This document shows, one piece after another, positions 1 through 46,714 of a stretch of DNA of 64,000 bases. A program made the position numbers and the translations under genes. Position 1 is the stretch's first letter, and each line of letters begins with the position of its first letter. The notes under the pieces are model-generated. The model was not told the origin of the DNA. It saw only the letters and a program-made list of their open reading frames with translations, and did not search any database. The stretch comes from Candidatus Sericytochromatia bacterium (GTDB taxonomy: Bacteria > Cyanobacteriota > Sericytochromatia > S15B-MN24 > JAQBPE01), in the NCBI GenBank assembly GCA_040400605.1, contig JBBAPZ010000007.1, positions 19,485-83,484 on the forward strand, written 5' to 3'.

Positions 1-2390
1 CGCCTGTCACGGGCGCATCGGGTGCCGTGGCAACCAAACGTGACGACGTGCCTCAGACGGACGGTTTGAGTGTTGACGAGTTGGTGATGCGAGCACAGCC
101 TGTGTCGACTGAGCCGTGGCGGGTTGAGCCGGACGCGTTGGTGTGGATCGCGCATCAAGGCGTATGTGATCTGAGTGCGGAGCTGGTCAAACAGCTGACG
201 GGCCACGGAGCAAAGGCACAGGCGGTTGATATCGCGATGCCGGAGGCGTGGCCTGAGGCAACGGGCTTGTACGGGGTGGTCCTGGTTGCGCCTGCAAACC
301 AGGTGTTGGATAGTCGCTCGATGTACCAACTCACGCAACACGTCGCGCCGGTGCTGAGAGCGGCCAAGCAAGGATTTGTCGTTGGCATCACGCGCATGGA
401 CGGCGCGTTTGGCCTGGGTCACGCAAGCGGAAACGAGAGCAGTGGTGCATTGAGCGGCCTCGTCAAGGGGTTGGCTTGGGAATGGCCGGCGCTACGGTGT
501 CGCGTTTTGGATGTGGATGCCGACCAGTACGACCGTGAGGCGATGGCAGCACAGGTCTTGCCGGAATTGTGGCGCAAGGGTCCCGTTGAGCTGGGGCTTT
601 CGCCTCAGGGTCAATGCGTCCTGGAATTGACACCGAGTCGCACACGACCGGCGGCCTCAGCGGCGGCGCTCGCGCCCCAGGATGTGGTGCTGGTAACGGG
701 TGGGGCACGTGGCGTGACTGCGGCGTGTGCGATCGCCCTTGCAGAGGCTTTGCGTCCGACTTTGGTTTTGCTGGGGCGATCGCCTTTACCAGGCCCCGAA
801 GCGTCCTGGTTGGCTGGTTGCGACGATGAAGCTGCCATCAAACAAGCGCTGAGAATCCACGAACCGGCGTGCAATACCCCCCGTTTGTTGCAGCAGCGCG
901 CGCAAGTCATCCTGGCTGAAAAAGCGATCCGTGAGACCCTCGCAAGCATCAACCAGTTGGGGGTGCCGGTGCACTACGTCAGTGTGGATGTGCGGGATGC
1001 GTCAGCCGTTAAAGATGCGGTGACGACCGTGAGGCAAACACTTGGGCCCATTCGGGGCTTGATTCACGGTGCTGGCGTCATTGCTGACCGCCTCATTCAC
1101 GAAAAATCCATCGCACAGTTTGATGCCGTGTTCGAAACCAAGGTCGTTGGGCTGCAGGCCATCATGGCAGCGACCGACCCTGGCGACCTCAAAGCGTTAA
1201 TCCTCTTCAGTTCGGTCACTGGTCGCCAAGGACGCAGTGGTCAAAGCGATTACGCGATGGCCAATGAGTGGCTCAATAAATTTGCCCAGGCGTTCGCCAG
1301 GCGTTATCCGGCTTGCCTCGTGCGCGCGTTAAACTGGGGCCCATGGGATGGTGGAATGGTCACGCGTGCGCACAAACGCCTCTTCGCGGCGGAGGGAGTG
1401 GGCGTCGTGCCACTTGAAGCCGGGGCGCGCTGGCTCGCCCAGACACTGGGTAGCGCGGTGGCGTCGGGGGTGGAGCAGGTGATACTCGGAACGCTCCCCG
1501 AAGCGAAAGCTGTTGCCTCCAAGCAGCCCGAATTGGTTCAAGACGTGTTCGCGTTCGAACTGGACCCCACGCGGGATGCCTGGCTGGATGATCATCGCCT
1601 GCGTGGGCGCTCGGTTTTACCTGCCGCACTGATGATTGACTGGCTCCTGCTTGCGGCTTCGCTGACGCAACCGGGTCTGAGTGTGCGCAGTTTAAGGCAT
1701 TTCACGGTCTTGAAGGGCTTGGTGCTGGATGAGTCACGTCAAAGCATCCATGGCGTGATTGAGCATACGAGCCGCAACGGTGAGACAACCGCTGTGCAGG
1801 CTGCCTTGGTGACGCGGGGTCATGATGGTCAAACAGTGCGCCACGCCAGTGCAGAACTTGAGGTTGGTGAGCAGTTAAGCCAAGACGTGGGTGATGTGGC
1901 TTTGGCGTTACCTGTGGGGCGTTATCCCCTTCGCATTGACGATGCGTATGGGCGTCATTTGTTTCACGGTGCGACTTGGCGTGGCATCGAGCGCATCACG
2001 GCGTTTAGTCCGGAGGGGGTCGCGGCACGTTTGCGCTGTGCGCCGGTGCCGCAGGCCTGGTTGAGCGAGACGCTCCAAGAGACGTGGATGGCTGATCCCT
2101 TGGTCATTGATTGTGTCTTTCAGCTTTTGATCCTGTGGAGTGTCCACCACTTGAACGCCCCTTGCTTACCCGCTCGCGTCGGCAGTCTGGAACGTTATTT
2201 TGAAGCCTTCCCGTCCCAAGGGTGTGACGTGGTGATTAGTTGTGTCAGCAAGCATCCGCACGAGTTGGTGGCAGCGGTTGAACTGCGCGATGGTGCGGGA
2301 TTATTGCTCGCACGCATGCAAGATGTGGTGGCAACGGTCAGTGCGCAACTGGTTGAGGCCTTTGGGGTAGAGGCGTCGGTGCCGCGGTGA
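1..2390 (+). CDS. pfaA: PfaA-like PUFA synthase/iterative PKS subunit, C-terminal KR + PKS-type DH region (5'-truncated by window edge)
   Basis: Frame is open back to the window start. KR Rossmann motif VTGGARGVT, HGAGVIAD and catalytic YAMAN; DH motif DHRLRGRSVLP (HxxxGxxxxP). The stop overlaps the next start (GTGA, 2387-2390). Confidence 0.88.
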   Translation, partial: PVTGASGAVATKRDDVPQTDGLSVDELVMRAQPVSTEPWRVEPDALVWIAHQGVCDLSAELVKQLTGHGAKAQAVDIAMPEAWPEATGLYGVVLVAPANQVLDSRSMYQLTQHVAPVLRAAKQGFVVGITRMDGAFGLGHASGNESSGALSGLVKGLAWEWPALRCRVLDVDADQYDREAMAAQVLPELWRKGPVELGLSPQGQCVLELTPSRTRPAASAAALAPQDVVLVTGGARGVTAACAIALAEALRPTLVLLGRSPLPGPEASWLAGCDDEAAIKQALRIHEPACNTPRLLQQRAQVILAEKAIRETLASINQLGVPVHYVSVDVRDASAVKDAVTTVRQTLGPIRGLIHGAGVIADRLIHEKSIAQFDAVFETKVVGLQAIMAATDPGDLKALILFSSVTGRQGRSGQSDYAMANEWLNKFAQAFARRYPACLVRALNWGPWDGGMVTRAHKRLFAAEGVGVVPLEAGARWLAQTLGSAVASGVEQVILGTLPEAKAVASKQPELVQDVFAFELDPTRDAWLDDHRLRGRSVLPAALMIDWLLLAASLTQPGLSVRSLRHFTVLKGLVLDESRQSIHGVIEHTSRNGETTAVQAALVTRGHDGQTVRHASAELEVGEQLSQDVGDVALALPVGRYPLRIDDAYGRHLFHGATWRGIERITAFSPEGVAARLRCAPVPQAWLSETLQETWMADPLVIDCVFQLLILWSVHHLNAPCLPARVGSLERYFEAFPSQGCDVVISCVSKHPHELVAAVELRDGAGLLLARMQDVVATVSAQLVEAFGVEASVPR

Positions 2391-5300
2391 ACACACAGCC
2401 CATGCAACCGATTGCCATTATTGCTGCGGCGGGAACCTTGCCGGGTGCTCAAGATGATCTTCAGGCATTCTGGCGGATGGTTGAAGCGGGGGAGAGTGCC
2501 ATCAAGCCCGTGCCGCAGGCGCGTTGGGGCCTGAAGAATCCGCCTGTGCAAGATTCCGCCCGGGGTCGGCCTGATTGCATCAATAGTGATCGCGCCTGCC
2601 TGCTTGCGCCCATCGCGTTTGATCCGGGTGGTTTTTTGGTTGATGAGGCCTTGCTCACAAAACTGGATCCATTGTTTCAGTTGCTGCTGCACACAGGCCG
2701 TCAGGCCTGGCGGCAAATCGCAGCCGGGCGCCTGGATCCCCGGCGTGTATCCGTTGTCATCAGTAACCTCATCTTGCCCAATGCGGCCAGCGCACGTCTG
2801 GCGCAACAGGTTTTGGGCGACGATGTGGTTACGCAGGACGATTCGGCGTGGCAGGATCGCTTCATGGCGGGGTTGCCGGCGGGTCTGCTCGGGCAGGCGT
2901 TGGGCCTTGGCGGGGGTTGTTTCACCTTGGATGCTGCGTGTGCGTCGGCATTTTACGCCATCAAGGTGGCGTGTGATCAACTCGAAGCGCTCGAAGTGGA
3001 TGCGGTGCTGACAGGCGGCGTATCGCGGCCCGATGCCTTGTATACGCAAATGGGGTTCTCCCAATTGCATGCGCTGTCCGTGCGTGGCATCAGTGCGCCT
3101 TTTGATGCGTCGGGCGATGGGTTGGTGGTTGGTGAAGGGGCGGGCTTGTTCGTGCTCAAGCGCCTGGTGGATGCCGAAAAGGACGGTGACACCATCTGGG
3201 GTGTCATTCGCGGGATTGGGCTGTCGAATGATCGCGAAGGCAGTTTGCTTGCCCCGCATAGCGAAGGCCAGTTGCGTGCGATGCGGGCCGCTTATCATCA
3301 AGCGGGTTGGTCGCCACGGGAGCTTTCACTCTTCGAGTGCCACGCCACCGGCACCCCACGGGGTGACTCGGTCGAAGTGGAAAGTTTGCGCCGCTTGCTG
3401 GCCGAGTGGCCGGCGGGACCCCATGATGTGGAATCGGCGGTGATTGGTTCCGTCAAGTCGAATGTCGGTCATTTGTTGACAGCCGCAGGCGCGGCGGGAT
3501 TGCTTAAAACGCTGCTCGCGTTTCAACATGCGACGCTGCCACCAACGGCCAATTTTCGTTCGACGGCAGCGGGGATCGACTTGAGCGATGGCCGTATCAG
3601 GGTGCTCTCACGCCCGGAACCTTGGTTGGCGCCGCCTGCCGGCGGGACGCGCCGCGCGGCATTGAGCGCTTTTGGTTTTGGTGGCATCAATGCCCATTTG
3701 TTACTGGAGAGTTATCCAGGTGTCGCGACGCCTGTCACTGTCAGCGGGCTTGACGCGCCTGAGCCGATCGCCGTTGTGGGGCTTGCCGCGCGCTTTGGTG
3801 GTCTTAAGAATTTGCGCGCGTTTCAGGAAGCCGTTTTGGGTGGTGCCGTGGCGCAGGAACACCGTTTGCGTCCAGCGCGCGATTCGAGGCTTGCATCCAC
3901 CCGTGAGCAAGGCTATTTCCTGGCGGGTGATCTGACAATCATGCCAGGCAAGTTTCGGATTCCCCCCCAGGAATTGCGCGATATGCTGCCGCAACAATTG
4001 CTTGCATTGCTTGGGGCGGAGTCCGCCCTCGAAGACGCAGGGCTGACACAGGCCGCGCGCGCGGGACATTTGGCGAACGCGGGTGTCTTGGTTGGCATTG
4101 GCCTTGATCCAGGCGCCACGAATTACCATTTGCGGTGGCAGGCCTTGGCGGAAACAGCACCCGGAGGCATAGACATGAGCGACAATCCGCCACTGAGCGC
4201 CAATCGCACGATCGGTTCACTGGGCGGGATGGTGGCCAGTCGCATTGCGCGGGAGTTTCGGTTGGGTGGCCCCAGTTTTACGGTGTCGGGGGAAGAGACG
4301 TCCGGGATACGGGCGATCGCGCTTGGCATGCGGGCGTTGCAGCGCCAAGAACTCGATCTCGCGGTGGCGGTCGCCGTTGAACTCGCGGGTGATCCCAGGC
4401 ATTTGTGGGCCTTTGAGGCGTTGCATGGCCAAACGGAGCCTGCGGGAGAAGGGGTGGGCGCGGTGGTGCTGAAGCGTCTGTCCGATGCGCAACGGGATGG
4501 GGATCGCATCTATGCCGTTTTGGATGGCGCTGCGTTCGCGAGCGGGGGTGCAGTTGAGCCAGGGGCGATCGCACCGTCTGCTTTGCGCGAGGTATGGGCT
4601 TCGGCGCTAAAAAGTGCCGAGGTGGCGTTGGCGCAGGTTGGTTATGTGGAATCCGCGGCAGCGCCGCGATACGCTCGCCAGGAGGCGTTGGCGCTGGCTG
4701 GATTCACCGCGGGTGAGGCACCGCCCCCTGTGCCGATCGCACTGGGACAAGCGGGATTGCGCGTGGGCCTTTGTGGCGTGGCAAGTTCGATGGCAAGCGT
4801 CATCAAAACCATCCTCGCAGTGTATCAAGAGATTTTGCCGGGTCATGACGCACCCCTCGCGTTGGCGAAGCACCTTCTTGAGGCGGATACCGAGGGCGCG
4901 AAGCGTTGGTTTCATCATCCGCGCACGGGACAGTACTGGTACCGGAACCGGGTTGATGGTCCGCGGCGCGCCGCAGTGCAGGCGATCGCCCACACCGGGG
5001 AGTGCGCGGTGTTGCTGATGCGCGAAAACGAAACCGTTCACCCGTCCCGCACAGCACAGGTACGCAGCGAACGGCATGCGCCCTTGGGCCTCGAACCCTT
5101 TGGCCTGTTTGTCATTCATGCGAGGGATGATCAGCAATTGGCGCTTGAGACGGCGGGTTTCCGTGACTGGTTGAGGCAGTGCGACAGCCAAAGACCATTG
5201 TCCGGCTTGGCGCGCGACTGGTTTGCGCAACATGGTCAGGGATTGGATCACGCCGCCCGGCTCAGTCTGGTGGCAGGCACCCTGGCGCAGCTGGAACAGG

Positions 5301-8300
5301 AATGCGAGGCAGCCGTGTCGCGTGGTTTCGCAAGCGCCTACGAAGCAAATGGGTCGCGCTGGGTTGGACTGCCTCAGGGGCGCACAACCCCGGAGGTCGC
5401 CTGGGTGTACCCTGGCTCAGGCAACCATTTTCCGGGCATGGGGGTTGCCTTGGCAGCCAACCATCCTGAGATTCCGCGACTGCAAGACACCCGCACGGCG
5501 TACTTGCGAAGCCAGGTCCTGCCGGAACGTTTTGCGCCGTGGCGACTGGACTGGCCAAGCGACTGGGAAAGCACCGTGGAACGCGAACTGGCGCAATCAC
5601 ACGGCCAGGTTTTGTTGGGGCAGGTGAGTGTCGGGGCTTTGATGACCGACTGGTTGGCCGCTTTTGATGTGCCGTTTCAGCACGTGATTGGTTACAGCCT
5701 CGGTGAAACCGCTGGGTTGGTGTCGACAGGAATCTGGCGCGACCGTGATACGTTGCTTGAACGGATGGCGCAAACGCCTTTGTTCAGTCGCGATCTCGCC
5801 GGTCGGTGTGAGGCGGCGCGCGCGGTATGGAGTCTGAATGACAACGAATCGGTCGATTGGCTGATTGGCGTTGTCAATCGTGATGCGCACGCGGTGCACG
5901 ACGCACTGGTTGGCCTGCCACGGGCCTATCTGTTGTTGGTGAACCAGCCGCAGGTATGCGTTGTGGGTGGCGCGCGCGAGGCGGTGATGGCCTTGGTTGA
6001 GCGGCTCGATTGCGCGTTTTTGGCAATCGATGGGGTGACGACGGTGCACTGTGAGGTCGCAAAACCGGTCGAGGCGGCCTACCGCGCGTTGCACCGCCTA
6101 AAGGTCTACCCCTTGGCTGGTGTTCGGGTTTACAGCGGCGCAAGCGGTGAAGCATACGTACCGGATACGGAATCCGTGGCGGATGCGATCGTGAACCAAG
6201 CCCTCGATACCGTTGACTTTTCGCGTGTCATCGAACGGGCGTATGAAGCGGGCGCGCGGATTTTCATCGAATTGGGACCCCGCAGTTCATGCACGCGGAT
6301 GATCAAGGCCATTTTGGGCGATCGCCCACACGTGGCCCGCGCGATGTGTATCAAAGGCGTACCGACCACACTCTCGGGCTTGCAATGCCTCGCCCAACTT
6401 CAGGCCGAAGGCGTCAGCGTGAACCTCAACGCGTTATATGGGCTGCGATCGCACGCGCGCGGCTGGGAGCCCGCAGCGCCGGTGCCCCAAAACGCGCTAC
6501 GCATCCCCATTCAGTCCGCGCCAGGCAAGCACGCGTTAACTGTGGTACAACCGCTGGATGCCACAGCCAGATTATCAGGCACCGAGGGCGAGTTGATGCC
6601 TGTATCCGTGCGCCTCAGCACGCAGGCAAACGATACGGTGACACCGGACGATGCCGCACAACCTGGTTTGTATCCGCTCGACGCATCGTTGATGCCGCGG
6701 GCTGTGCCGCCTGAGTGGCTGAGCGGTGAAATGGCGCTGAGTCGCGCCATCGCGGATGCGCATGCGGCTTATCTGGGGTTTGTTGCGGGACACACAGGCG
6801 CAATCCAGGCGGTGCTTGCGCGGCTTGAAGCACCAGCTGACCTGAGCGTTGCAAAGCCTGTCTGGTTGGATCGCGCGGGTTGCTTGCGTTTTGCGCAGGG
6901 TGCGATCGCAGACGTTCTGGGAGAACGTTTTGCCCCTGTGGATACCCACCCCACACGGGTGCGTTTACCGGATGAACCACTGATGCTGGTGGATCGTATT
7001 TTAAGCGTCACGGGCGAGGCCTGCTCACTGGGTTCTGGTACCATCGTCACAGAGCATGACGTGATGCCGGGTGCGTGGTACCTCGATGCGGGACGAATTC
7101 CAACCTGCATCGCTGTCGAAGCCGGGCAAGCCGATCTCTTTTTGTCAGCCTACCTGGGTATCGATTTTGAAACCCGGGGCCTTGCCTGCTACCGCTTGCT
7201 CGACGCGGTGGTGACCTTTCACCGCGCGCTGCCGTTGGCGGGCGCCACGATTCGCTATGACATTGCGATCGATCGCTTCATGCGCCAAGGCGACACCCAT
7301 CTGTTTTTCTTCCGCTTTGAGGCAACTGTTGATGGTGAACCCCTGCTGAGTATGCAAAACGGCTGTGCCGGATTTTTTAGCGCGCAACAATTGCAAGACG
7401 GGCGCGGGATCGTGCTGACTAGCCTGGAGCAGCGTCAAATCGCGGGCAAACGTCCCGAAAACTGGCCGCAGTGGGTGCCGATGCGCCCAATGACCTTGTC
7501 GCTGGCGCAAGTGGATGCCTTGCGCGAGGGGCGGCTCGTTGACGCCTTTGGGTCTGAATTTGCAGGTCTCCCGCTGAGCAACCCGGTTCGTTTGCCTGGT
7601 GGGCGGCTGCGTTTGGTCGAAGAAATCAGCCTGCTTGATCCCACCGGCGGGCGCTTCGGGTTGGGACTCATTCGGGGTGAAGCCCGTATTCAACCGGATG
7701 ATTGGTTCTTGACTTGCCACTTTGTGGATGACCAGGTGATGCCAGGCACCTTGATGTATGAGTGCTGCATGCACACGCTGCGCATTTTCCTCATGCGAAT
7801 GGGTTGGGTTGGCGAGGATGATCACGTGAACGTCGAGCCGGTGCCGGGGGTGTCAAGCACCCTCAAGTGCCGGGGGCAGGTGCTGGCTGGCACCAAGCGG
7901 GTCACTTATGAGATTGTGATTCGCGAACTGGGGCTTGCGCCAACCCCTTATGCACTGGCCGATGCCTTGATGTACGCGGATGATCGCCCGATTGTTTCAA
8001 TCACGAACATGTCAATTCGCATGAACGGTCTTGGCGAAGCCCAATTGGCAAGGATGTGGGGTGAACGGGAAACGGCGTTGCCAACAGCGCAAGCGTTACC
8101 CTACAACCGTGAGTCGATTCTGGCTTTTGCGATTGGCAAACCGTCTGAAGCGTTTGGCGATCGCTACCGCGTTTTTGATGCGCAGCGCATCATCGCCCGT
8201 TTACCCGGTCCACCCTATATGTTTTTGGACCGGGTGGTCAGTGCCACAGGTGCGCCTTGGGTGATGCAAGCAGGCGCTGCGTGTGTTGCCCAATATGACG

Positions 8301-9190
8301 TGCCGCACGACGCGTGGTATTTTGCGGATGAAGCCCAGCCGCGCATGCCCTTTGCCGTATTGCTCGAAGTGGGCTTGCAACCGTGTGGCTGGTTGGCCGC
8401 TTATGTCGGGTCGGCGCTAACCAGTGACGTTGATCTCTCGTTTCGCAACTTGGGCGGCCAAGCCACACAACACCTGCCCGTGACGCCGGATACCAGGACC
8501 TTGACCACGCGGGTGGAATTGACCAAGATTTCAAGTTCCGGGGGAATGATTATCCAAGATTACATCGTGAGCATCCACGCGGGCGAAAACTTGGTCTATC
8601 AGGGCGACACCACCTTCGGCTTCTTTACCAAAGCGGCCCTGAAGCATCAAGTCGGGGTACGGGGCGCCACCCTCTACGAACCGGATGCAGCCGAAAAACG
8701 CGCGCAAAGCGCTCCGACGCTTGATTCAAGCGGGTTGCCGATGGCGCGCGGCAGGCTTCGCATGCTGGATGAGCTAACCATGTTTGCACCGGGCGGTGGG
8801 CGTTTCAAGATGGGCTACCTGCGCGGCACCAAAACGGTGGACCCGGCGGCTTGGTTCTTTGCCGCGCACTTTTACCAAGATCCGGTCATCCCGGGGTCTT
8901 TGGGCCTCGAATCGCTGCTGCAATTGCTGAAGGCGTTTGCGCAGGCTCGCTGGACCAATCGTGTCAAACCGGCTGACCAGTTCGAAAGTATCGCTTGTGG
9001 GGTGCCGCATGCCTGGCAATACCGCGGTCAGATTGTTCCAAGCAATCGCCAGGTGGTGGTGGAGGCGCACATCAAGCAAATCGACGATGGGGGGCGCATG
9101 ATTATTGCAGATGGACAGTTATCGGTGGATGGCCTGGTGATTTATCACATGACTGATTTTGGCCTTCGGGTCGTGACGGGGCAACCGTGA
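2387..9190 (+). CDS. pfaBC: PfaB/PfaC-type PUFA synthase fusion: KS - chain-length factor - AT - FabA-like DH/pseudo-DH pairs
   Basis: KS triad DAACAS, ECHATGT, NVGHLLTAAG. Second KS-like domain has no catalytic Cys (GEETSG; CLF). AT motifs YPGSG and GYSLGE. Two FabA-like DH motifs, CHFVDDQVMPG and AHFYQDPVIPG. 2267 aa. Confidence 0.92.
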   Translation: MNTQPMQPIAIIAAAGTLPGAQDDLQAFWRMVEAGESAIKPVPQARWGLKNPPVQDSARGRPDCINSDRACLLAPIAFDPGGFLVDEALLTKLDPLFQLLLHTGRQAWRQIAAGRLDPRRVSVVISNLILPNAASARLAQQVLGDDVVTQDDSAWQDRFMAGLPAGLLGQALGLGGGCFTLDAACASAFYAIKVACDQLEALEVDAVLTGGVSRPDALYTQMGFSQLHALSVRGISAPFDASGDGLVVGEGAGLFVLKRLVDAEKDGDTIWGVIRGIGLSNDREGSLLAPHSEGQLRAMRAAYHQAGWSPRELSLFECHATGTPRGDSVEVESLRRLLAEWPAGPHDVESAVIGSVKSNVGHLLTAAGAAGLLKTLLAFQHATLPPTANFRSTAAGIDLSDGRIRVLSRPEPWLAPPAGGTRRAALSAFGFGGINAHLLLESYPGVATPVTVSGLDAPEPIAVVGLAARFGGLKNLRAFQEAVLGGAVAQEHRLRPARDSRLASTREQGYFLAGDLTIMPGKFRIPPQELRDMLPQQLLALLGAESALEDAGLTQAARAGHLANAGVLVGIGLDPGATNYHLRWQALAETAPGGIDMSDNPPLSANRTIGSLGGMVASRIAREFRLGGPSFTVSGEETSGIRAIALGMRALQRQELDLAVAVAVELAGDPRHLWAFEALHGQTEPAGEGVGAVVLKRLSDAQRDGDRIYAVLDGAAFASGGAVEPGAIAPSALREVWASALKSAEVALAQVGYVESAAAPRYARQEALALAGFTAGEAPPPVPIALGQAGLRVGLCGVASSMASVIKTILAVYQEILPGHDAPLALAKHLLEADTEGAKRWFHHPRTGQYWYRNRVDGPRRAAVQAIAHTGECAVLLMRENETVHPSRTAQVRSERHAPLGLEPFGLFVIHARDDQQLALETAGFRDWLRQCDSQRPLSGLARDWFAQHGQGLDHAARLSLVAGTLAQLEQECEAAVSRGFASAYEANGSRWVGLPQGRTTPEVAWVYPGSGNHFPGMGVALAANHPEIPRLQDTRTAYLRSQVLPERFAPWRLDWPSDWESTVERELAQSHGQVLLGQVSVGALMTDWLAAFDVPFQHVIGYSLGETAGLVSTGIWRDRDTLLERMAQTPLFSRDLAGRCEAARAVWSLNDNESVDWLIGVVNRDAHAVHDALVGLPRAYLLLVNQPQVCVVGGAREAVMALVERLDCAFLAIDGVTTVHCEVAKPVEAAYRALHRLKVYPLAGVRVYSGASGEAYVPDTESVADAIVNQALDTVDFSRVIERAYEAGARIFIELGPRSSCTRMIKAILGDRPHVARAMCIKGVPTTLSGLQCLAQLQAEGVSVNLNALYGLRSHARGWEPAAPVPQNALRIPIQSAPGKHALTVVQPLDATARLSGTEGELMPVSVRLSTQANDTVTPDDAAQPGLYPLDASLMPRAVPPEWLSGEMALSRAIADAHAAYLGFVAGHTGAIQAVLARLEAPADLSVAKPVWLDRAGCLRFAQGAIADVLGERFAPVDTHPTRVRLPDEPLMLVDRILSVTGEACSLGSGTIVTEHDVMPGAWYLDAGRIPTCIAVEAGQADLFLSAYLGIDFETRGLACYRLLDAVVTFHRALPLAGATIRYDIAIDRFMRQGDTHLFFFRFEATVDGEPLLSMQNGCAGFFSAQQLQDGRGIVLTSLEQRQIAGKRPENWPQWVPMRPMTLSLAQVDALREGRLVDAFGSEFAGLPLSNPVRLPGGRLRLVEEISLLDPTGGRFGLGLIRGEARIQPDDWFLTCHFVDDQVMPGTLMYECCMHTLRIFLMRMGWVGEDDHVNVEPVPGVSSTLKCRGQVLAGTKRVTYEIVIRELGLAPTPYALADALMYADDRPIVSITNMSIRMNGLGEAQLARMWGERETALPTAQALPYNRESILAFAIGKPSEAFGDRYRVFDAQRIIARLPGPPYMFLDRVVSATGAPWVMQAGAACVAQYDVPHDAWYFADEAQPRMPFAVLLEVGLQPCGWLAAYVGSALTSDVDLSFRNLGGQATQHLPVTPDTRTLTTRVELTKISSSGGMIIQDYIVSIHAGENLVYQGDTTFGFFTKAALKHQVGVRGATLYEPDAAEKRAQSAPTLDSSGLPMARGRLRMLDELTMFAPGGGRFKMGYLRGTKTVDPAAWFFAAHFYQDPVIPGSLGLESLLQLLKAFAQARWTNRVKPADQFESIACGVPHAWQYRGQIVPSNRQVVVEAHIKQIDDGGRMIIADGQLSVDGLVIYHMTDFGLRVVTGQP

Positions 9191-10236
9191 TGCGATTCTC
9201 ACGGGTGTCGCTGCTCACAATCGGCTACGAACTGGCACCGGTTGTGGTGAGTTCCAGGCAGCTTGAGTCGCGCCTTGGGCCACTTTATGAGCGTTTGGGC
9301 CTGCAAGAAGGGTATCTCGCGTCGTTGACGGGCATCAAGGAGCGTCGCTGGTGGCCCAAACAATACAGCCTCTCGGAGCGCACCGCGGTGGCTGCTACGC
9401 GGGCACTGGCGCAAGCAGGGCTCGAACCGGGTGAACTCGGAGCCGTCATTTACGGGGGTGTGTGTCGTGAGAACCACGAACCGGCCACGGCGTGTGCGGT
9501 GGCGGAACGCCTCGGTGTGACGGGCGCCGTCTGCGTGCAGGATATCTCGAATGCTTGTTTGGGGGCGTTGTCCGGGATTTTGGCGATCGCCAACATGATC
9601 GAATTGGGGCAGATTCGAGCAGGCGTGGTGGTGGCCGCAGAATCCGCACGAGAAATCAACGACGCCATGATTGAAGACATGCTGGATGACCCGACCATGG
9701 ATCGCTTTCGCCTCGGTATGGCGACTTTAACCGGTGGTTCGGGAGCTGTTGCGATCGTACTGGTTGACAACACGTACTACACCCAGCGACGTGCGCACCG
9801 CTTGCGGGGTGCGACAATTCTTGCCGAACCCGCGCATCATCGCCTTTGTCGTTGGGGAGCCGATACGCGCGTGCCGCCCCGTCGCAGCGTGGTGATGGAA
9901 ACGGACGCAGTGAGCGTGTTAAAAGCGGGTGTGCCCTTGGGGGCCCGCACGTGGCAAGCCTTTCTTGCCCAAATGGAATGGGCGCGTCAAGACGTCAGCA
10001 AGGTGATAAGCCACCAGGTCGGGCAAGCCAATCGGGAGCAAATTCTGCGGGCACTGGACATTCCAGATACACGTGATTTTTCAACCTACCCATTTTTGGG
10101 TAATACGGGCTCCGTGGCGGTGCCCATCACGGCGGCGATCGCCGCCGAACGTGGCTTTTTGCAGACCGGTGACAACGTGGCATTCTTGGGCATCGGCAGC
10201 GGTCTCAGTTGCCTGATGCTGGGTTGGGAGTGGTGA
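9187..10236 (+). CDS. oleA: OleA, thiolase/KASIII-like acyl:acyl condensing enzyme
   Basis: HEPATA (catalytic Glu), NACLG (Cys), SHQVG, LGNTG, C-terminal GIGSGLSC; followed by oleBCD. Start is GTG 9187 or ATG 9190. Confidence 0.9.
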   Translation: MMRFSRVSLLTIGYELAPVVVSSRQLESRLGPLYERLGLQEGYLASLTGIKERRWWPKQYSLSERTAVAATRALAQAGLEPGELGAVIYGGVCRENHEPATACAVAERLGVTGAVCVQDISNACLGALSGILAIANMIELGQIRAGVVVAAESAREINDAMIEDMLDDPTMDRFRLGMATLTGGSGAVAIVLVDNTYYTQRRAHRLRGATILAEPAHHRLCRWGADTRVPPRRSVVMETDAVSVLKAGVPLGARTWQAFLAQMEWARQDVSKVISHQVGQANREQILRALDIPDTRDFSTYPFLGNTGSVAVPITAAIAAERGFLQTGDNVAFLGIGSGLSCLMLGWEW

Positions 10237-11159
10237 TGACGACGACACAGGCGCCCTTCGCAGGCATTGACCCCGTGCTCTGGCATTCGGAATATCCCTT
10301 CGAATCCCGGTATCTGCGCCTGTCTCACGGGGCACGCATGCACTACCTCCACGTTGGGCAGGGCGAACCCGTCATCATGGTGCATGGCAACCCGTCTTGG
10401 TCCTTTTATTTCCGCAAACTGGTTCGGGCACTGTCTGACACCCATCAGGTGATCGTTCCCGATCACATCGGCTGCGGGCTGTCAGACAAGCCTGACGACT
10501 CACGTTATAACTATACCCTGCGCTCACGGATCGATGACCTCGCGGAACTGTTGCAAAGCCTTGGCATTGACGGCCCTGTCACCTTGGTCTTGCACGATTG
10601 GGGCGGGGCCATCGGCCTCGGTTGGGCGGCCAGACAACCCGCGTGCCTCAAGCGCCTGGTATTGCTCAATACGGCGGCTTTCGGCCTGCCTGAGGGTAAA
10701 ACGTTGCCCTTTGCGCTCACCCTGTGCCGCGTGCCGGGGCTTGGCGCCGGCTTGATTCGTGGCTTGAATCTCTTTGCGCGCCAAGCATCACGGATCGGCT
10801 GTACCAGCCATCCGATGACGCAGGCATTAAAAGACATGTACTGCGCACCCTACGACTCTTGGCACAATCGCATTGCAACCTTGCGTTTCGTACAAGATAT
10901 TCCCCTCACCACGACCGACCCGGCTTATGACAGCTTGAGACAGGCAGAGGCTGCACTGACGCACTGGCAACATGTTCCTGCTTTGATTGCGTGGGGTGGA
11001 CAAGATCCCGTATTTGATAAACTCTTTTTGAACGAATGGCAAAAACGTCTGCCAAACGCCACGGTGGAATGGTTTCCACACGCAGGCCACTACATTTTGG
11101 AAGACGAAAGCGTTCGAGTGGTTCCACTGATTCGCGATTTTTTGTCAGAGGCACGTTAA
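10236..11159 (+). CDS. oleB: OleB, haloalkane-dehalogenase-like beta-lactone decarboxylase
   Basis: HGNPSW, Asp nucleophile elbow HDWGG, AGHY catalytic His, FVQDIP; TGATG overlap with oleA. Confidence 0.88.
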   Translation: MTTTQAPFAGIDPVLWHSEYPFESRYLRLSHGARMHYLHVGQGEPVIMVHGNPSWSFYFRKLVRALSDTHQVIVPDHIGCGLSDKPDDSRYNYTLRSRIDDLAELLQSLGIDGPVTLVLHDWGGAIGLGWAARQPACLKRLVLLNTAAFGLPEGKTLPFALTLCRVPGLGAGLIRGLNLFARQASRIGCTSHPMTQALKDMYCAPYDSWHNRIATLRFVQDIPLTTTDPAYDSLRQAEAALTHWQHVPALIAWGGQDPVFDKLFLNEWQKRLPNATVEWFPHAGHYILEDESVRVVPLIRDFLSEAR

Positions 11160-11162
11160 ACG

Positions 11163-12809
11163 ATGGACCCAAGCGCTGAATTGTCACCGATTGAATCGCT
11201 CGCCGATATGACGAACATTGCGTCATGTCTGGAGCGCTGGAAGGCGATCGTCCCTCGGCAAACTGCCATCACGGTGGGGACTCAATCCCTGGATTTTTCG
11301 ACCTTGGACGAGTTGAGCGACCGTTACGCCGCTATCCTTCAGGCTGCCGGCATTCAAACCGGCACCCGTACCGCTTTGATGGTAACGCCAGGCGTTGATT
11401 TCATCGCCTGTGCCTTTGCCCTGTTCAAACTGGGGGCGCTGCCCGTGATGGTGGATCCAGGTCTTGGCTTCAAGGAAGTGGGCGCCTGTTTGAACAGGGC
11501 CAAGACGCAAGCGTTCGTGGGTGTCCCCAAGGCGCACTTGGCGCGCGTGCTGGGGCGTTGGGGCCGAGGCGATCGCTGGTTGAATGTCTGGGTGGGCAAG
11601 CCAGGGTTTAACGGCCACATGCCGTGTTTACACCCAGAGGTGGTATCAACTCCCTTGCAATGGGATGCAAGCATTAACCCGGATCAAGCAGCCGCCATTT
11701 TATTCACAAGTGGCAGCACGGGGAGTCCCAAAGGGGTTATGTACACGCACCGGATGTTTCTTGAACAGTTACGACTGCTGGCAAAAGACTTCAAGACGGG
11801 GCCCGGCTATGTGAGTTTACCGACGTTTCCTTTGTTCGCGCTGTTTGATGTGGCGTTGGGTATGACAATCATCATCCCCAAAATGAACTTTAGCAAACCT
11901 GCCAAGGTCGATGCGCAACACATCGTGGAACTGATTGGGCGCCACGGGGTGACCCACCTGTTCGGTTCGCCTGCCTTGATCCAACGCGTGGGGGAATGGG
12001 CCATCAAACGGCAATATCGCTTGCTAAGCCTAAGGGTGGTTCTGTCAGCCGGTGCACCGGTTGCGCCGCCGATCCTCAAAACCTTCGCCTCACTTCTCAG
12101 TTCAGACGTCATGCTGGTCACGCCATACGGTGCTACCGAAGCCTTGCCCGTGGCACTCATCGACCATACCCGGATTTTAGATGACACGCTGGAACAGTGG
12201 GCTTCAGGCGGCGGCGTCTGCGTCGGTCATCTCGTCGATGGCATCGAGGCGGCACTGATTCCGATCACGGACGCACCAATTACCCGATTTGACGCTAAAA
12301 TGGCACTCCCCCAAGGGGCGGTGGGTGAAATTGTCGTCCGTGGCGCTCAGGTGTCACAGGTTTATGACAACCTCCCGGAAGCGACTTTGGCAGCCAAAAT
12401 GGCTGATGAACGGGGCGATCCCTGCTGGCACCGCATGGGAGATGTCGGGCGTTTTGATGAACAGGGGCGACTATGGTTTTTGGGGCGCAAAGCCCATCGG
12501 GTTGAAGTGAATGGCGAACAATTGCTCCCCATTCCGTGTGAGGCCATCTTCAATCAACATCCGGCCATCAAGCGCTCAGCGTTGGTGTCCGCGCGAGGCA
12601 AAGCCGTGATTTGCGTTGAACGGGAAGCCGGATTTGGTGATTTGCCGTGGCGCGAGTTGGTCCTGGCACTGCGGGCCTTGGCACAACGACAGCCGCACAC
12701 GCGTGCGATCACGACGTTTTTGGAGCATCCGGCGTTTCCGGTTGATATTCGGCACAATGCCAAAATCCGGCGCGAGATCCTCGCGCAGTGGGCGTCACAA
12801 CGAGTATGA
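11163..12809 (+). CDS. oleC: OleC, AMP-dependent beta-lactone synthetase
   Basis: FTSGSTGSPKG, YGATE, HRMGD and the OleC-like C-terminal FPVDIRHNAKI. Confidence 0.9.
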   Translation: MDPSAELSPIESLADMTNIASCLERWKAIVPRQTAITVGTQSLDFSTLDELSDRYAAILQAAGIQTGTRTALMVTPGVDFIACAFALFKLGALPVMVDPGLGFKEVGACLNRAKTQAFVGVPKAHLARVLGRWGRGDRWLNVWVGKPGFNGHMPCLHPEVVSTPLQWDASINPDQAAAILFTSGSTGSPKGVMYTHRMFLEQLRLLAKDFKTGPGYVSLPTFPLFALFDVALGMTIIIPKMNFSKPAKVDAQHIVELIGRHGVTHLFGSPALIQRVGEWAIKRQYRLLSLRVVLSAGAPVAPPILKTFASLLSSDVMLVTPYGATEALPVALIDHTRILDDTLEQWASGGGVCVGHLVDGIEAALIPITDAPITRFDAKMALPQGAVGEIVVRGAQVSQVYDNLPEATLAAKMADERGDPCWHRMGDVGRFDEQGRLWFLGRKAHRVEVNGEQLLPIPCEAIFNQHPAIKRSALVSARGKAVICVEREAGFGDLPWRELVLALRALAQRQPHTRAITTFLEHPAFPVDIRHNAKIRREILAQWASQRV

Positions 12810-13813
12810 AACAGGGGCTGGTAACAGGCGGCGGGGGGTTTTTGGGACGTGCGATCGTCGCGCAATTGCTGGCGTTAGGCTGGAAGGTTCGTTGTTACCA
12901 ACGCGGGCATTATCCAGACTTGCTGGCGGCCGGTGCGGAGGTTTGGACAGGTGATCTGACAGACATAGAAAACATGAAACAGGCCTGCCAAGGCGTTGAC
13001 ACGGTGTTTCATGTCGCGGCCAAGGCGGGTGTTTGGGGGCCTTATGAAGGCTATTTTGCAGCGAATGTCACAGGGACGCGTCATGTGCTTGAGGCGTGCC
13101 GGGCAAACGGCGTCCAACGGCTTGTTTACACCAGTTCGCCGAGTGTGGTGTTTGATGGACGCGATCACGAAGGCATTGATGAGCGCACCCCCTACGCGAC
13201 CCGGTTTCTGGCAAGTTACCCCCAAACCAAGGCGATCGCCGAACAAATGATCCTTGCAGCAAACAGTCCCGAACTGGCGACCATTGCGCTGCGGCCGCAT
13301 CTGATTTGGGGTCCGGGTGATCCGCACCACCTGCCCCGGCTCATTGCGCGCGCGCGCAGCGGGCAACTCCGACGCATCAGCGGTCCAACCACATTCATCG
13401 ATGCCACCTACATCGATAACGCAGCCCACGCACATATCCTCGCGTGCGACGCCCTCAAACCGGGTGCGCCCTGCGCCGGACGCGCCTACTTCATCGCGCA
13501 GGGCGAACCCGTGGCGACCTGGGACTTCATTCAATCCATACTCGAAGCCGTTGGGCAGCCCCAAACACTACCGACCATACCGCCGTGGCTGGCACGCCTG
13601 GCAGGCGCAGCCGCCGAAGACACCTACCGTCTGCTGGGCCTCGAACGCGAACCACCGATGACCCGGTTTGTCGCCCAGGAACTCACCACATCCCACTGGT
13701 TTGATCTCACGGCAGCCCGGCAGGATCTGGGTTACACAGCATCAATTACCACCGACGAAGGCCTCCGACGACTGGCTCAGGCATATGCATCAGATGCCAC
13801 CAACCAGACGTGA
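12806..13813 (+). CDS. oleD: OleD, NAD(P)-dependent 2-alkyl-3-oxoalkanoate reductase (3-beta-HSD-like SDR)
   Basis: VTGGGGFLG, HVAAKAGVWG, YTSSPSVVF, YPQTK, RPHLIWGPGD; ATGA overlap with oleC. Confidence 0.9.
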   Translation: MKQGLVTGGGGFLGRAIVAQLLALGWKVRCYQRGHYPDLLAAGAEVWTGDLTDIENMKQACQGVDTVFHVAAKAGVWGPYEGYFAANVTGTRHVLEACRANGVQRLVYTSSPSVVFDGRDHEGIDERTPYATRFLASYPQTKAIAEQMILAANSPELATIALRPHLIWGPGDPHHLPRLIARARSGQLRRISGPTTFIDATYIDNAAHAHILACDALKPGAPCAGRAYFIAQGEPVATWDFIQSILEAVGQPQTLPTIPPWLARLAGAAAEDTYRLLGLEREPPMTRFVAQELTTSHWFDLTAARQDLGYTASITTDEGLRRLAQAYASDATNQT

Positions 13814-14031
13814 GACAAGCGCGCCATGATGACTGAGGGTTTCAAACATTCTGGAGTCGTACCGCCACAAAGCGTGTGCCACACGGATCGCGCAAGCATT
13901 TTTTTCATAAGTGGCCACACGCCAGGGATCAGTGTGACGTCTACGCGCAATCAGGAAAACGTGCACCTCAGCTAAAATAGCACCCCATTATGCCCGATGC
14001 GCCAACCTTGTAACCAGACTGGAAACCATTC

Positions 14032-14060
14032 TTGACACTGGCTTGGCCTGAACTTATACT
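14032..14060 (+). promoter_or_regulatory. Sigma70-type promoter for yceD-rpmF
   Basis: TTGACA (14032-14037), 17-nt spacer, TATACT (14055-14060). Confidence 0.75.
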
Positions 14061-14119
14061 TTTGATGCTGTGCGGTATTTTGTGGGGAGTCACAGGAGAG
14101 CTGTCAGCCAGGGGTTCGA

Positions 14120-14581
14120 ATGCAACTCGCCGTTTCCAGTATTTTGCAATCGCAGCGGAATACAAATGTCTACCCTTTTTGTGAAATGTTAAGCCTCGAG
14201 TCCGAGGACGAGCGTTTGACGCGGGCAGTTCAAGGAGACGTCACGGTAACGCGAGCCAGTTCACGGGTGATTCGCGTGACGGGTGCCTTCGATACTGAAT
14301 TGACGTTCAAGTGCGACCGGTGTGGTGAGACCTTCACGCAAGCCTTCGCGTTTGAACTGGACGAAACCTTGGATGTTACAGATAGCCCGTTGACGGCGCT
14401 TGAAGTGGAAGAAGCGGTCTCGCCCACGGGTCAACTGGATTTGACGGATCTCGTCCGGCAGAACCTTCTTGTCAGTTTGCCAGGTCGGCGTTTATGTGGT
14501 TGTTCACCCATTGAGTCAGGTCAGTCAGGAGACATTTTAGACCCACGCTGGTCGGCTCTCAAAGGTTTCGGCACCAACTGA
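14120..14581 (+). CDS. yceD: YceD/DUF177 family protein
   Basis: CDRC motif, LDLTDLVRQNLLVSLP, C-terminal DPRWSALK; directly upstream of rpmF. Confidence 0.88.
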   Translation: MQLAVSSILQSQRNTNVYPFCEMLSLESEDERLTRAVQGDVTVTRASSRVIRVTGAFDTELTFKCDRCGETFTQAFAFELDETLDVTDSPLTALEVEEAVSPTGQLDLTDLVRQNLLVSLPGRRLCGCSPIESGQSGDILDPRWSALKGFGTN

Positions 14582-14671
14582 AACCGAAGCGTCTATCCCT
14601 CACGGTTGGCGTGCCAAGGCGACACGGATCGCGCCGTCGCAACACCTCAACAATTGTTCTGGAGAATTCCG

Positions 14672-14860
14672 ATGCCTCAACCCAAGAAAAAACACACCAA
14701 TATGCGTACCGGCCATCGTCGCGCACACTGGATGAACAGCATTCATGTGCCCAACCTGACCACCTGTAACACATGCAACGCGCCCATGATTCCCCACACG
14801 TTGTGCCAGTCATGTCAGACCTACCGGGGGCGTTCGTTCGGTGTTCCGGCCGAGGAGTAA
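14672..14860 (+). CDS. rpmF: 50S ribosomal protein L32 (Zn-ribbon form)
   Basis: MPQPKKK..RRAHW..CNTC..PHTLCQSC..YRGR; GGAGA RBS upstream. Confidence 0.93.
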   Translation: MPQPKKKHTNMRTGHRRAHWMNSIHVPNLTTCNTCNAPMIPHTLCQSCQTYRGRSFGVPAEE

Positions 14861-18858: not shown

Positions 18859-19033
18859 GAGGCAGCACGGTGGCTCGGATCGCGCCTTCAACTCACTCAT
18901 CACAATTCCGGTCCCACGCACCGAGATGGCTCTTGCATGTCTGTCTTTTGCGCCCACAAGGCGCGAGAAAGAGACCAGGCAGACCCCATTCAATCCCGTC
19001 TGACGCCGTGCTATGATACGCCTTGGAGGCGAC

Positions 19034-20581
19034 ATGCAGCGCAGGAATCTCCCAATCGGGATTCAGACCTTTCGTGAGATTCGTGAAAATGGCCACTATT
19101 ATGTGGATAAGACCCCGCTGATTCTGCAGCTCATCAAACAGGGCAAACCCTATTTTCTTTCCCGCCCGCGTCGCTTCGGCAAGAGCCTGTTGCTCGACAC
19201 CATCAAAGAACTCTTCGAAGGCAACCAGGCCTTGTTTGAAGGCTTGCGTGCCGAGGCCAACTGGGATTGGTCGGTTACGCATCCGGTGGTGCGTTTGAGT
19301 TTTGGCGCAGGCGTGCTCAAGACGTCCGAGAAACTGGCGGCAAATTTGCACAAACAGCTTTCTCGGCTGGAGCAGGAATCCGGTTTGAAGCAGCGCTTTG
19401 AGCATGCGGGAGAGCGTTTGGCTGACCTGATTGAGACGCTGCACGATCGCACGGGGCGGCGGGTTGTTGTGTTGGTGGACGAGTACGACAAACCGATCCT
19501 CGACAACTTGACCGAACCTGAGCGGGCGCGGGCGATGCGTGAGGGGTTACGGGATTTATACAGTGTGTTGAAAGATGCGGATGCGCATTTGCGCTTTGTG
19601 TTCATTACCGGGGTGAGCAAATTTTCGAAGGTGAGTCTGTTCTCGGGGCTGAACAACTTGCGTGACATTACGTTGAGCGCGGAGTATTCCGCGTTGTGCG
19701 GTTATACGGACCACGATGTGGAGACGGTGTTTGCGCCGGAACTGCCCGGTTTGGATCGCGACCGCATCCGGCGTTGGTATAACGGTTACAATTGGACGGG
19801 TGAAGCGGTATACAACCCTTTTGACCTGCTGCTGCTGTTTCAGGAGCGTCAGTTTCGGCCTTATTGGTTCGAGACGGGTACACCCACGTTTTTGGTGGAG
19901 CATCTGGCCAAGCGCCGCTATTTCACGCCGAATCTGGCGCGCATGCAATCCAGTGAAGCCTTGATGTCGCGTTTCGATGTGGATGACATCGCGCCTGAGG
20001 CGTTGCTCTGGCAAACCGGGTATCTGACCATTTTGGGTACGCGGGAGGTGAGCGAGGGGCAGTGGGTTTACACGTTGGGCTATCCCAACCGGGAGGTGGA
20101 GGCGAGCCTGAATGCGAGTTTGGTCAATGCGTATGGCGGCGAGGAATCCCCTGCGTTTGATGCGCGCGTTCAGCTGATTGAAGCCTTGCAGGCAGGGGAG
20201 ACCGACCATTTGCGGGATATTATCCAGGCGTTGTTTGCCAGTATTCCGCACGATTGGTATCGGAACAACCCGTTGCCGCAGTATGAGGGGTTTTACGCCA
20301 GTGTGTTTTACAGTCATTTGGCGGCGTTTGGGCTGGATACGCGGGTAGAGGATGCGACGAACAGGGGGCGCATCGATTTGGCGTTGCGGACAGGCGATCG
20401 CATCTACCTGTTCGCGTTCAAGGTGGTCGAGCAGGTGCCGGAGGGCCGTGCGATCGCACAGTTGCAACGCAAGGGCTACGCTGAAAAATACCGCGCACCA
20501 GGTGTCACGATTAGCCTGGTTGGCATCGAATTCAGCCGGGAGGCACGCAACGTGGTGGCGTTTGAGGTGGCAGACGGCTAA
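19034..20581 (+). CDS. AAA-ATPase-like domain + PD-(D/E)XK nuclease-fold (DUF1703-type) protein
   Basis: LPIGIQTFREIR, YVDKT, Walker A SRPRRFGKS, VDEYDKP, YNPF, YWFETGTP, GRIDL, GIEFS; GGAGG RBS. Confidence 0.9.
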   Translation: MQRRNLPIGIQTFREIRENGHYYVDKTPLILQLIKQGKPYFLSRPRRFGKSLLLDTIKELFEGNQALFEGLRAEANWDWSVTHPVVRLSFGAGVLKTSEKLAANLHKQLSRLEQESGLKQRFEHAGERLADLIETLHDRTGRRVVVLVDEYDKPILDNLTEPERARAMREGLRDLYSVLKDADAHLRFVFITGVSKFSKVSLFSGLNNLRDITLSAEYSALCGYTDHDVETVFAPELPGLDRDRIRRWYNGYNWTGEAVYNPFDLLLLFQERQFRPYWFETGTPTFLVEHLAKRRYFTPNLARMQSSEALMSRFDVDDIAPEALLWQTGYLTILGTREVSEGQWVYTLGYPNREVEASLNASLVNAYGGEESPAFDARVQLIEALQAGETDHLRDIIQALFASIPHDWYRNNPLPQYEGFYASVFYSHLAAFGLDTRVEDATNRGRIDLALRTGDRIYLFAFKVVEQVPEGRAIAQLQRKGYAEKYRAPGVTISLVGIEFSREARNVVAFEVADG

Positions 20582-42578: not shown

Positions 42579-43700
42579 CTACTGACCAGATCGCTGTTTG
42601 TTCCGGTTATTCAAAAAATCCGGAATCTGTGGCTTGTCTGGGCCCATGCCGGTACCAACGTTGCCAAGATACGCCAAACCATTCGTCTCCTTCACCGGCG
42701 TCTCAATACTCGCAGCGGCAATCGATCGTGATGGCAAAACAGGCGATTGCGCTGACTTGTTCTGATCAAATCCCGTCGCAATAACGGTGATGCGGATCTC
42801 ATTCTTGAACCGCTCGTCATTGACCAGACCAATGATGATCATCGCATCCGAGTTCACTGACCCATAAATCACTTCCGCCGCATCACTGACCTCCGCCAAG
42901 GTCACATCCATACCGCCGGTCACATTGAAGATCACACCGGTCGCACCGTTGATACTTGTCTCAAGCAACGGCGAGTTGATGGCTGCACGCGCCGCCTCGA
43001 CTGCACGCCCCTCACCAGACGCCGTCCCCGTACCCATCAAGGCCGAACCAGCCGAGGACATAATCGTCTTGACATCCGCAAAGTCGACATTCATTTCACC
43101 CGGAATCGTGATAATGTCACATATCCCCTGCACACCCTGGCGCACCACATCATCGGCCAACTGAAACGCCTCGCGCATGGTCGTACGCTTATCTGCAACG
43201 TGCAACAACTTGTCGTTCGGAATGACGATCAGCGTATCAACCTTCTCGCGGATGGCATTGATGCCCTCAGCAGCCTGTTCAGCACGACGCTTGCCCTCGA
43301 AGGTGAACGGCCGCGTCACCACGGCAACCGTCAGAGCACCGACTTCCTTCGCAACCTCTGCTACCACCGGCGCTGCACCCGTACCAGTTCCGCCACCCAT
43401 ACCCGCCGTGATAAAAACCATATCAGCACCGGTCAACGCAGCCACGAGGTCCTCGCGACTCTCCTCAGCCGCTTTTTGCCCAACCATTGGACGACCGCCA
43501 GCACCCAAGCCCTTGGTCACCTTGGATCCAATTTGCAATCGTTTTTCCGATTGCGACTGCGCCAATGCCTGTGCGTCCGTGTTGACTGTCCAAAACTCGA
43601 CATTGGTCACGCCGCTCGCGATCATGCGATTGACGGCGTTTGAACCACCGCCCCCGACTCCGATGACCTTGATGTCCGCGTTGTTCGTCAATTTGTCCAT
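42579..43700 (-). CDS. ftsZ: Cell division protein FtsZ
   Basis: [30 protein letters not shown]-terminal IPDFL. Confidence 0.97.
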
Positions 43701-46631: not shown

Positions 46632-46714
46632 AAACGATTCCCCTTTGACTGTGAGCGCGCTTTCAATACCAAAACCACACGCATCAAACCATCACCCCAC
46701 CTATGACAACGCCT

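Follow-up and report, generated by a model that had tools for sequence, protein, structure and literature searches.

The gene clusters most similar to the one described here are the 'Type I' pfa-like clusters of Shulse and Allen (2011), which carry a pfaBC fusion and were reported from Geobacter, Desulfuromonas, Pelobacter and Gemmata (PMC3098273). According to the sections of that paper that deal with them, ole genes are 'often linked' to Type I clusters, these were proposed to supply precursors for olefin synthesis, and hentriacontanonaene is made by Geobacter bemidjiensis. In the relevant part of Yoshida et al. (2016), G. bemidjiensis is given as a C31:9 producer with the tandem arrangement pfaD, A, B, C, oleA, B, C, D, pfaE (PMC4882568). 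We have analysed a cluster of this kind in a stretch of 64,000 nucleotides from a Candidatus Sericytochromatia bacterium (assembly GCA_040400605.1, contig JBBAPZ010000007.1, positions 19,485 to 83,484 of the forward strand; G000:C7:19485-83484 in our numbering), hereafter called the window; the preceding 19.5 kb of the contig was inspected as well. The cluster consists of seven genes on one strand in the order pfaD-pfaA-pfaC/B-oleA-oleB-oleC-oleD. By analogy with the described systems, we consider it probable that it belongs to the known 'Type I pfa-like plus ole' type, with a very long polyunsaturated olefin as its predicted product, the likeliest candidate being the C31:9 polyene or a compound closely related to it.

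The resemblance to the cluster of G. bemidjiensis Bem, as far as the published descriptions cover it, extends to the position of pfaD at the head, the fused pfaBC, the oleA-D genes directly after it and the single strand. Over their full length, the proteins of Geobacter, Geomonas and Desulfuromonadaceae loci are 42-57% (PfaC/B) and 53-56% (OleA) identical to those of the window. The described Geobacter cluster has pfaE after oleD, whereas in the window oleD is followed after 306 nt by yceD and the candidate phosphopantetheinyl transferase (PPTase) gene lies on another contig. The hosts also differ, Geobacter being an anaerobe of the Desulfuromonadales and the window belonging to a non-photosynthetic member of the Cyanobacteriota.

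In Shewanella, parts of two papers describe a Pfa-derived 16:4n-3 chain that is condensed by OleA (PMC6463001, PMC4882568), the Pfa synthase serving OleA in vivo as a source (PMC6463001). The gene order there is pfaEABCD, unlike in the window, and PfaB and PfaC are encoded by separate genes (in part from PMC4882568). Shewanella OleA, OleC and OleD are 55-56%, 40-42% and 46-48% identical to the window's proteins, and in the seven Shewanella loci fetched no pfa gene was present in the upstream DNA examined. Shewanella also makes eicosapentaenoic acid for its membranes. Xanthomonas campestris has the same four enzymes OleABCD, and its OleA structures (3ROW, 3S21, 4KTI) are the best solved matches of the window's OleA (162 bits, full length); the two proteins are ~37% identical, as estimated by eye from the alignment, in which the Cys, His, Asn and Glu of one fall on those of the other. 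Xanthomonas is not known to have pfa genes, and its ole substrates come from FAS II, the type II fatty acid synthase. Within the phylum of the window, photosynthetic cyanobacteria have FAAR/ADO alkanes, Ols terminal olefins and hgl heterocyte-glycolipid islands. To our knowledge, neither FAAR/ADO nor Ols involves a head-to-head condensation. Cyanobacterial hydrocarbon formation is credited to these two other routes. The hgl islands, in the part of PMC11804610 that treats them, comprise pfa-related type I synthases as well.

Within the window, six open reading frames (ORFs) on the + strand tile positions 1-13813 nearly without spacers. The 3' part of pfaA (1..2390; ORF 3..2390, read in frame from base 3) encodes the last residues of the acyl carrier protein (ACP) linker, a ketoreductase (KR) and a PS-DH dehydratase (DH); Pfam gives 120.9 bits for KR, 56.6 bits for PS-DH and 37.2 bits for PKS_DH_N, and the PfaA model TIGR02813 is matched at positions 1817-2581. 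The fused pfaC/pfaB gene (2387..9190, 2267 aa) encodes a ketosynthase (KS), a second KS without the Cys motif, which is therefore regarded as resembling a chain-length factor (CLF), an acyltransferase (AT) and two FabA-type dehydratase/isomerase units. Pfam detects ketoacyl-synt in two stretches, Acyl_transf_1, and FabA in four stretches, and residues 1000-1348 match the PfaB family model. Next comes oleA (9187..10236), which encodes a thiolase-fold enzyme of 349 aa, predicted to catalyse head-to-head Claisen condensation (NF006720, 443.8 bits, cut-off 285). It is followed by oleB (10236..11159, ORF from 10209), whose product of 307 aa from the ATG at 10236 is an alpha/beta-hydrolase of the haloalkane-dehalogenase type and a predicted beta-lactone decarboxylase (Abhydrolase_1, 104 bits). 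The oleC gene (11163..12809, 548 aa) encodes an AMP-forming ligase-type enzyme and predicted olefin beta-lactone synthetase (AMP-binding; PRK09274, 603 bits, cut-off 478). Finally, oleD (12806..13813, ORF from 12788; 335 aa from the ATG at 12806) encodes an extended short-chain dehydrogenase/reductase of the 3beta-hydroxysteroid dehydrogenase type and predicted 2-alkyl-3-oxoalkanoate reductase (3Beta_HSD, 201 bits).

The junctions between these genes are very tight. At GTGA 2387-2390 the TGA stop of pfaA shares bases with the GTG start of pfaC/B, and at GTGATG 9187-9192 the TGA of pfaC/B (9188-9190) falls within the GTG-ATG start of oleA. The ATG of oleB at 10236 shares bases with the oleA stop in TGATG 10234-10238, the TAA of oleB (11157-11159) is separated from the ATG of oleC (11163) by a 3-nt spacer, and the oleC stop shares bases with the oleD start in ATGA 12806-12809. 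The stop of oleD is the TGA at 13811-13813, after which a spacer of 306 nt precedes yceD. A consensus search of 1..14700 found five promoter-like sites and none on the + strand within the cluster; the best of the five, TTGACA-17 nt-TATACT at 14032..14060 (+), lies in the oleD-yceD spacer and is a consensus match only (11/12). This site likely marks the next transcription unit, hence the 3' edge of the cluster, and the overlapping stops and starts together with the lack of an internal + strand promoter-like site would favour a single pfa-ole operon. The first-pass annotation of this DNA had described the same genes in the same order, with the same stop/start junctions and with intact catalytic motifs; each of its gene calls and junctions was borne out when the sequence was read, and every motif checked was present in the pfa and ole proteins.

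The upstream DNA completes the cluster, as had been forecast when only the window was at hand: pfaD with its enoyl reductase (ER) and the part of pfaA with its KS, malonyl acyltransferase (MAT) and tandem ACPs were both found when the upstream contig was retrieved. The pfaD gene is on the same strand (TIGR02814 pfaD_fam, 640.2 bits, cut-off 449), 18 nt upstream of pfaA. Together with pfaD, the 5' part of pfaA (KS-MAT-ACPs), again on the same strand, occupies G000:C7:13726-19385, ahead of a scaffold gap; before the gap pfaA encodes a KS, an AT, one complete PP-binding domain and the start of a second ACP. The gap, a run of 100 N (G000:C7:19386-19484), is situated inside the tandem ACP repeats, and base 1 of the window directly follows it. 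Since the apparent change of frame in pfaA coincides exactly with this run, it is an assembly gap, without sign of mutation. Tandem Repeats Finder did not detect the ACP array, because the gap interrupts it. Family homologues of PfaA measure 2415-2519 aa and have 3-4 ACP motifs, and a 260-nt ACP unitig has a depth ~3x that of its flanks in runs X1/X2, which are possibly from the source sample, and in X3, depth being a quantity other than copy number; these values hint at three or four ACPs in pfaA. About 1 kb upstream of pfaD there is also a 1158-aa ORF (L003 9145-12621, G000:C7) with B12-binding, MeaB-like GTPase and methylmalonyl-CoA mutase domains, an IcmF-like architecture.

The Pfa proteins show the motifs expected for their domains. 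The KS Cys motifs are DAACASS in PfaA and DAACASA in the first KS of PfaC/B, the AT motifs GHSYGE and GYSLGE (the latter in PfaC/B), and the ACP motif LGIDSI. PfaC/B has two FabA-type His motifs, HFVDDQVMPG and HFYQDPVIPG, and is 42-57% identical to PfaC/B proteins whose genes adjoin oleA in other phyla. The host genome also has its own FAS II, in which two FabF proteins exceed the cut-off and a FabH-like gene, located away from the cluster, reaches 275 bits, so the Pfa system is a secondary synthase. A single match to the ACPS family was found in the genome, a 244-aa ORF on contig C3 (35.5 bits, cut-off 25), which is the PPTase candidate; its match to EntD is weak (28 bits, cut-off 169). Besides the pfaC/B of the cluster, a second PfaC-like gene is present elsewhere in 5/7 other genomes of the window's family (G003:C81:54176-56533, G006:C91:23450-25813, G002:C121:528-2891, G007:C84:53581-55950 and G004:C452:2904-5231), with 39-41% identity over the DH part and open frames of 1738-3115 aa. 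A search with the PfaC/B DH part returned one PfaC-like match in the window's own genome and no second copy.

For OleA, the question raised earlier of whether it would group with OleA or with FabH is answered by structure matches and by the tree, both of which place it with OleA and away from FabH. Indeed, it matches the Xanthomonas OleA structures in the PDB at 162 bits compared to 68 bits for the best FabH, and on the FabH model it scores 83 bits versus 275 for the FabH-like gene of the genome. Cys124 (in NACLG), His276, Asn306 and Glu98 are invariant in our OleA alignment (A1), and we take the roles of this Cys-His-Asn triad and of the Glu to be those known from the Xanthomonas work. OleA of the window and its family has ~9 extra residues after LCRWG (A1 columns 224-232) compared to Xanthomonas OleA and to the OleAs of two other families of the class (f6 and f7, see below), while some planctomycete and gammaproteobacterial matches are ~50 residues longer still. 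OleB matches haloalkane dehalogenase structures at up to 127 bits, with the Asp of HDWG and the His of GHY aligned; by its predicted nucleophilic Asp and its His it fits the family. The P-loop TSGSTGSPK is present in OleC, which clusters in the tree with OleC proteins of other ole clusters, and OleD has the Rossmann motif GGGGFLG and the YxxxK motif YPQTK.

In order to see how widespread this arrangement is, genomes were scanned with the OleA alignment, one genome per species, which gave 589 confirmed relatives; the counts that follow rest on the best 80 loci. In 51 of these 80 the coding sequence for the C-terminus of a PfaC/B homologue, on the strand of oleA, ends no more than 300 nt before it, as it also does in 43/64 when the count is limited to loci whose upstream DNA spans 3 kb or more. 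The 51 linked loci come from Geobacter, Geomonas, Pelobacter, Desulfuromonadaceae, Gemmataceae, Isosphaeraceae, other Planctomycetota, Limisphaerales, Elusimicrobiota, metagenome-assembled genomes (MAGs) of Gammaproteobacteria (a Thiotrichaceae MAG included) and Desulfobacterales. The 29 unlinked ones include every Shewanella, Moritella, Colwellia, Psychrobium and Motilimonas locus, and in some of the 29 pfa genes are nearby on the opposite strand or farther off. An oleB homologue follows oleA in 74/80 loci, all from other species.

The layout and the likely product are already in print, and the novelty is the host lineage, with conservation throughout its family. The first-pass annotation had suspected that the linkage might not be new and had conceded that near-identical characterised clusters would remove the novelty. 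The linkage is indeed not new, given the 51/80 loci and the published G. bemidjiensis cluster with C31:9, and the concession largely applies; however, those clusters share only ~42-57% protein identity with the window's, and genetic proof for them in that host was never given. Its further suggestion of a lineage in which this chemistry is uncharacterised holds, since the host belongs to a non-photosynthetic class of Cyanobacteriota and the literature searched, supplements excluded, yielded no paper on ole or pfa genes in Sericytochromatia.

The host class is non-photosynthetic. Isoleucyl-tRNA synthetase did not place the host: compared with five named MAGs it gave 49% (Planctomycetaceae), 46% (Verrucomicrobiales), 46%/43% in two pieces (Limisphaerales), 40% (Phycisphaeraceae) and 28% (Elusimicrobia), and in the protein atlas it matched generic clusters in which Bacillota was the most frequent taxon. 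The phylum, Cyanobacteriota, followed from photosystem II instead. The photosystem II family PF00421 was found in 20/40 genomes of the phylum outside the class and in 0/21 within it, the window's genome included; the 20 out-of-class genomes without PF00421 are one family with genomes of 1.6-2.2 Mb, from which the window's class is distinct. Sericytochromatia is named with Vampirovibrionia as a non-photosynthetic group beside the Cyanobacteriia in the portion of PMC11804610 consulted, and by elimination the host class would be Sericytochromatia. DNA of the window was found in freshwater, lake-water and subsurface metagenomes, and the runs listed for window 5000-14000 included none of RNA.

The distribution of the two halves of the cluster was next followed through seven families of the class, of which f1 is the window's own, f2-f4 belong to the same order and f5, f6 and f7 are others. 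With the OleA protein as query, matches were obtained in 6/7 other f1 genomes (57-63% identity), in 10/10 of f6 and 3/3 of f7 (31-37% identity), and in 0/19 of f2-f4 and 0/1 of f5. The OleC query gave 7/7 in f1, 12/13 in f6 and 6/6 in f7, again with 0/19 in f2-f4 and 0/1 in f5. The DH part of PfaC/B was found in 7/7 other f1 genomes, 0/19 of f2-f4, 0/1 of f5, 0/13 of f6 and 1/6 of f7, that is, in all other genomes of the window's family versus 1/39 genomes of the other families. A profile built from A1 matched 4/5 other f1 genomes, 0/15 of f2-f4, 12/12 of f6 and 5/5 of f7 (f5 being outside this sample); in total 22/111 phylum genomes sampled have a match, the window's included, all in the window's class, and no OleA-like gene was detected by this profile in the 73 phylum genomes outside it.

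In all five family genomes fetched (L096-L100) the gene order is identical to that of the window, within the reach of each stretch. In f6 and f7 the oleABCD genes can also lie together (L101, G036:C44), and OleB, OleC and OleD of this locus share 44-53% identity with their counterparts in the window, whereas the OleAs of the two families are on the other side of the tree root. Elsewhere the set is split up: in L102 (G028:C51) oleA is by itself and oleC is found on a different contig, and in L103 (G030:C1) only oleA and oleB are adjacent. No pfa gene was seen beside oleA in the three f6/f7 loci fetched (L101-L103).

The OleA tree (93 rows, quick IQ-TREE, SH-aLRT only) has the f6/f7 OleAs as its outgroup on a long branch, with a length of 1.78 to either side of the root. 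The window's OleA, six family OleAs and one long-branch Myxococcales MAG form one clade (support 97), which is nested in a clade of 87 rows with Shewanella and Geobacter. In the OleC tree, which has 67 rows and is without an outgroup, the window's family is one clade beside two Elusimicrobiota rows (96) and f6/f7 are in a separate clade. In both trees Elusimicrobiota rows are closer to the window's family than Geobacter is. The pattern agrees with a gain of the entire cluster in an ancestor of this family, the donor being one that the trees, with their weak deep forks, do not name. The 44-53% identity of OleB, OleC and OleD raised another scenario, in which OleBCD would be vertical in the class and only OleA replaced; it is unsupported by the OleC tree, in which, with no outgroup, the window's family and f6/f7 are separate clades.

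Taken together, the best reading of the cluster, judged from its genes, would be that of a PUFA (polyunsaturated fatty acid) synthase devoted to a long polyunsaturated olefin, and by analogy with Shewanella and Geobacter C31:9 is the likeliest product. The iterative Pfa synthase, with the domains ER, KS-MAT-ACPn-KR-DH and KS-CLF-AT-DH2, would assemble, on its tandem ACPs, a polyenoyl chain with methylene-interrupted double bonds, the corresponding chain in Shewanella being 16:4n-3, after activation of the ACPs by a putative Sfp/EntD-like PPTase encoded elsewhere in the genome. OleA would then join two polyenoyl chains head to head into a 2-alkyl-3-ketoacid, which OleD would reduce with NADPH; OleC, using ATP, would form the beta-lactone, and its decarboxylation by OleB would yield the cis-olefin. 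The tight pfa-ole overlaps would promote co-transcription and coupled translation, matching an OleA that draws its substrate straight from the synthase.

Several observations weigh against this assignment. The host is an uncultured MAG and the cluster is known here from its genes, and the length of the chain is not readable from sequence. The pfaA gene is split by the scaffold gap, across which ACP number and continuity are not readable, and Pfam and NCBIfam searches found neither pfaE nor a thioesterase in the cluster. Furthermore, OleC scores 507 bits (E 4.9e-152) on both olefin beta-lactone synthetase models, below their cut-offs of 850 and 900, and the OleD models, although they are the two best matches of OleD (412 and 396 bits), are below their cut-off of 580; these curated cut-offs belong to Shewanella and Xanthomonas equivalog models. 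The window has long end branches in the trees, 0.54 (OleA) and 1.12 (OleC) versus medians of 0.12 and 0.23, and given these branches the specificity of OleA and OleC may have drifted. Finally, in the passages of PMC3098273 and PMC4882568 that concern it, the link from pfa to olefin in Geobacter was itself deduced.

Other explanations were weighed, none of which is favoured by the data. The two halves could work apart, Pfa making some polyunsaturated fatty acid, or another secondary one, for membrane lipids and Ole making saturated or monoene olefins from FAS II products, as in Xanthomonas or Micrococcus. The host does have a FAS II, the presence of ole in f6 and f7 with the pfa part in 1/19 genomes implies that Pfa is dispensable for Ole function in this class, and a stand-alone product of pfa homologues is raised as a possibility in PMC3098273. 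However, the window's OleA belongs to a clade of pfa-associated OleAs far from the f6/f7 type, the pfaC/B stop overlaps the oleA start, an adjacency shared by 51 of the best 80 loci, and the Pfam and NCBIfam searches showed no thioesterase or acyltransferase in the cluster that would release chains to lipids, hence we regard separate functions as unlikely. The pathway might also stop early, with a polyunsaturated ketone or beta-lactone as end product and no decarboxylation to the olefin. OleA alone gives a 31:8 ketone in E. coli, according to the relevant section of PMC6463001, and the sub-threshold scores of OleC and OleD would agree with such an outcome; but none of the four ole genes is truncated, their nucleophile and cofactor motifs are in place, and all four are kept in the five family genomes fetched, which makes an early stop very improbable.

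Equally improbable, in our view, is that the cluster is decaying or silent, in which case the break in pfaA would be genuine and relaxed selection would underlie the length of the OleA and OleC branches. This explanation would account for a pfaA whose frame differs between the two sides of the gap, and comparison with a related strain gave 17 protein-changing and 19 silent changes among the 36 differences listed (65 further ones are unlisted). The break, however, is exactly the 100-N run in a repeat, every other ORF is open with all checked motifs intact, and the 36 differences are mostly in the ACP-KR linker; moreover, with ~3x more non-synonymous sites, by rough estimate, the ratio of 17:19 still suggests purifying selection.

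The finding extends a known polyunsaturated-hydrocarbon pathway into the cyanobacterial phylum and leaves knowledge of its mechanism unchanged. It bears on C31:9-type polyenes as environmental markers and on the choice of compact seven-gene operons for expression. We would tentatively go further and propose, as a possibility held with less than even confidence, that the non-photosynthetic sister class of the oxygenic cyanobacteria has the Ole pathway in two forms, one of them joined to a PUFA synthase throughout a single family; Cyanobacteriota would then have a third, apparently unreported hydrocarbon route, and fresh water and the subsurface a source of C31:9-type polyenes or of a polyene with a new chain length, the latter being conceivable because the OleA and OleC branches are long.

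Farther along the window, three other features were recorded. A 522-aa protein with predicted AAA-ATPase and PD-(D/E)XK nuclease domains (PF09820, PF08011) is encoded among housekeeping genes at 19013-20581 (+), and a 367-aa ORF at 33158-34261 (+) matches only the C-terminal part of FHIPEP (FlhA), at profile positions 335-654 of 657. On the - strand, 42579-56166 contains a series of division and cell-wall genes that includes FtsZ, MurG, three genes of the Mur-ligase family and a penicillin-binding protein transpeptidase, adjoined by the isoleucyl-tRNA synthetase gene at 39674-42508.

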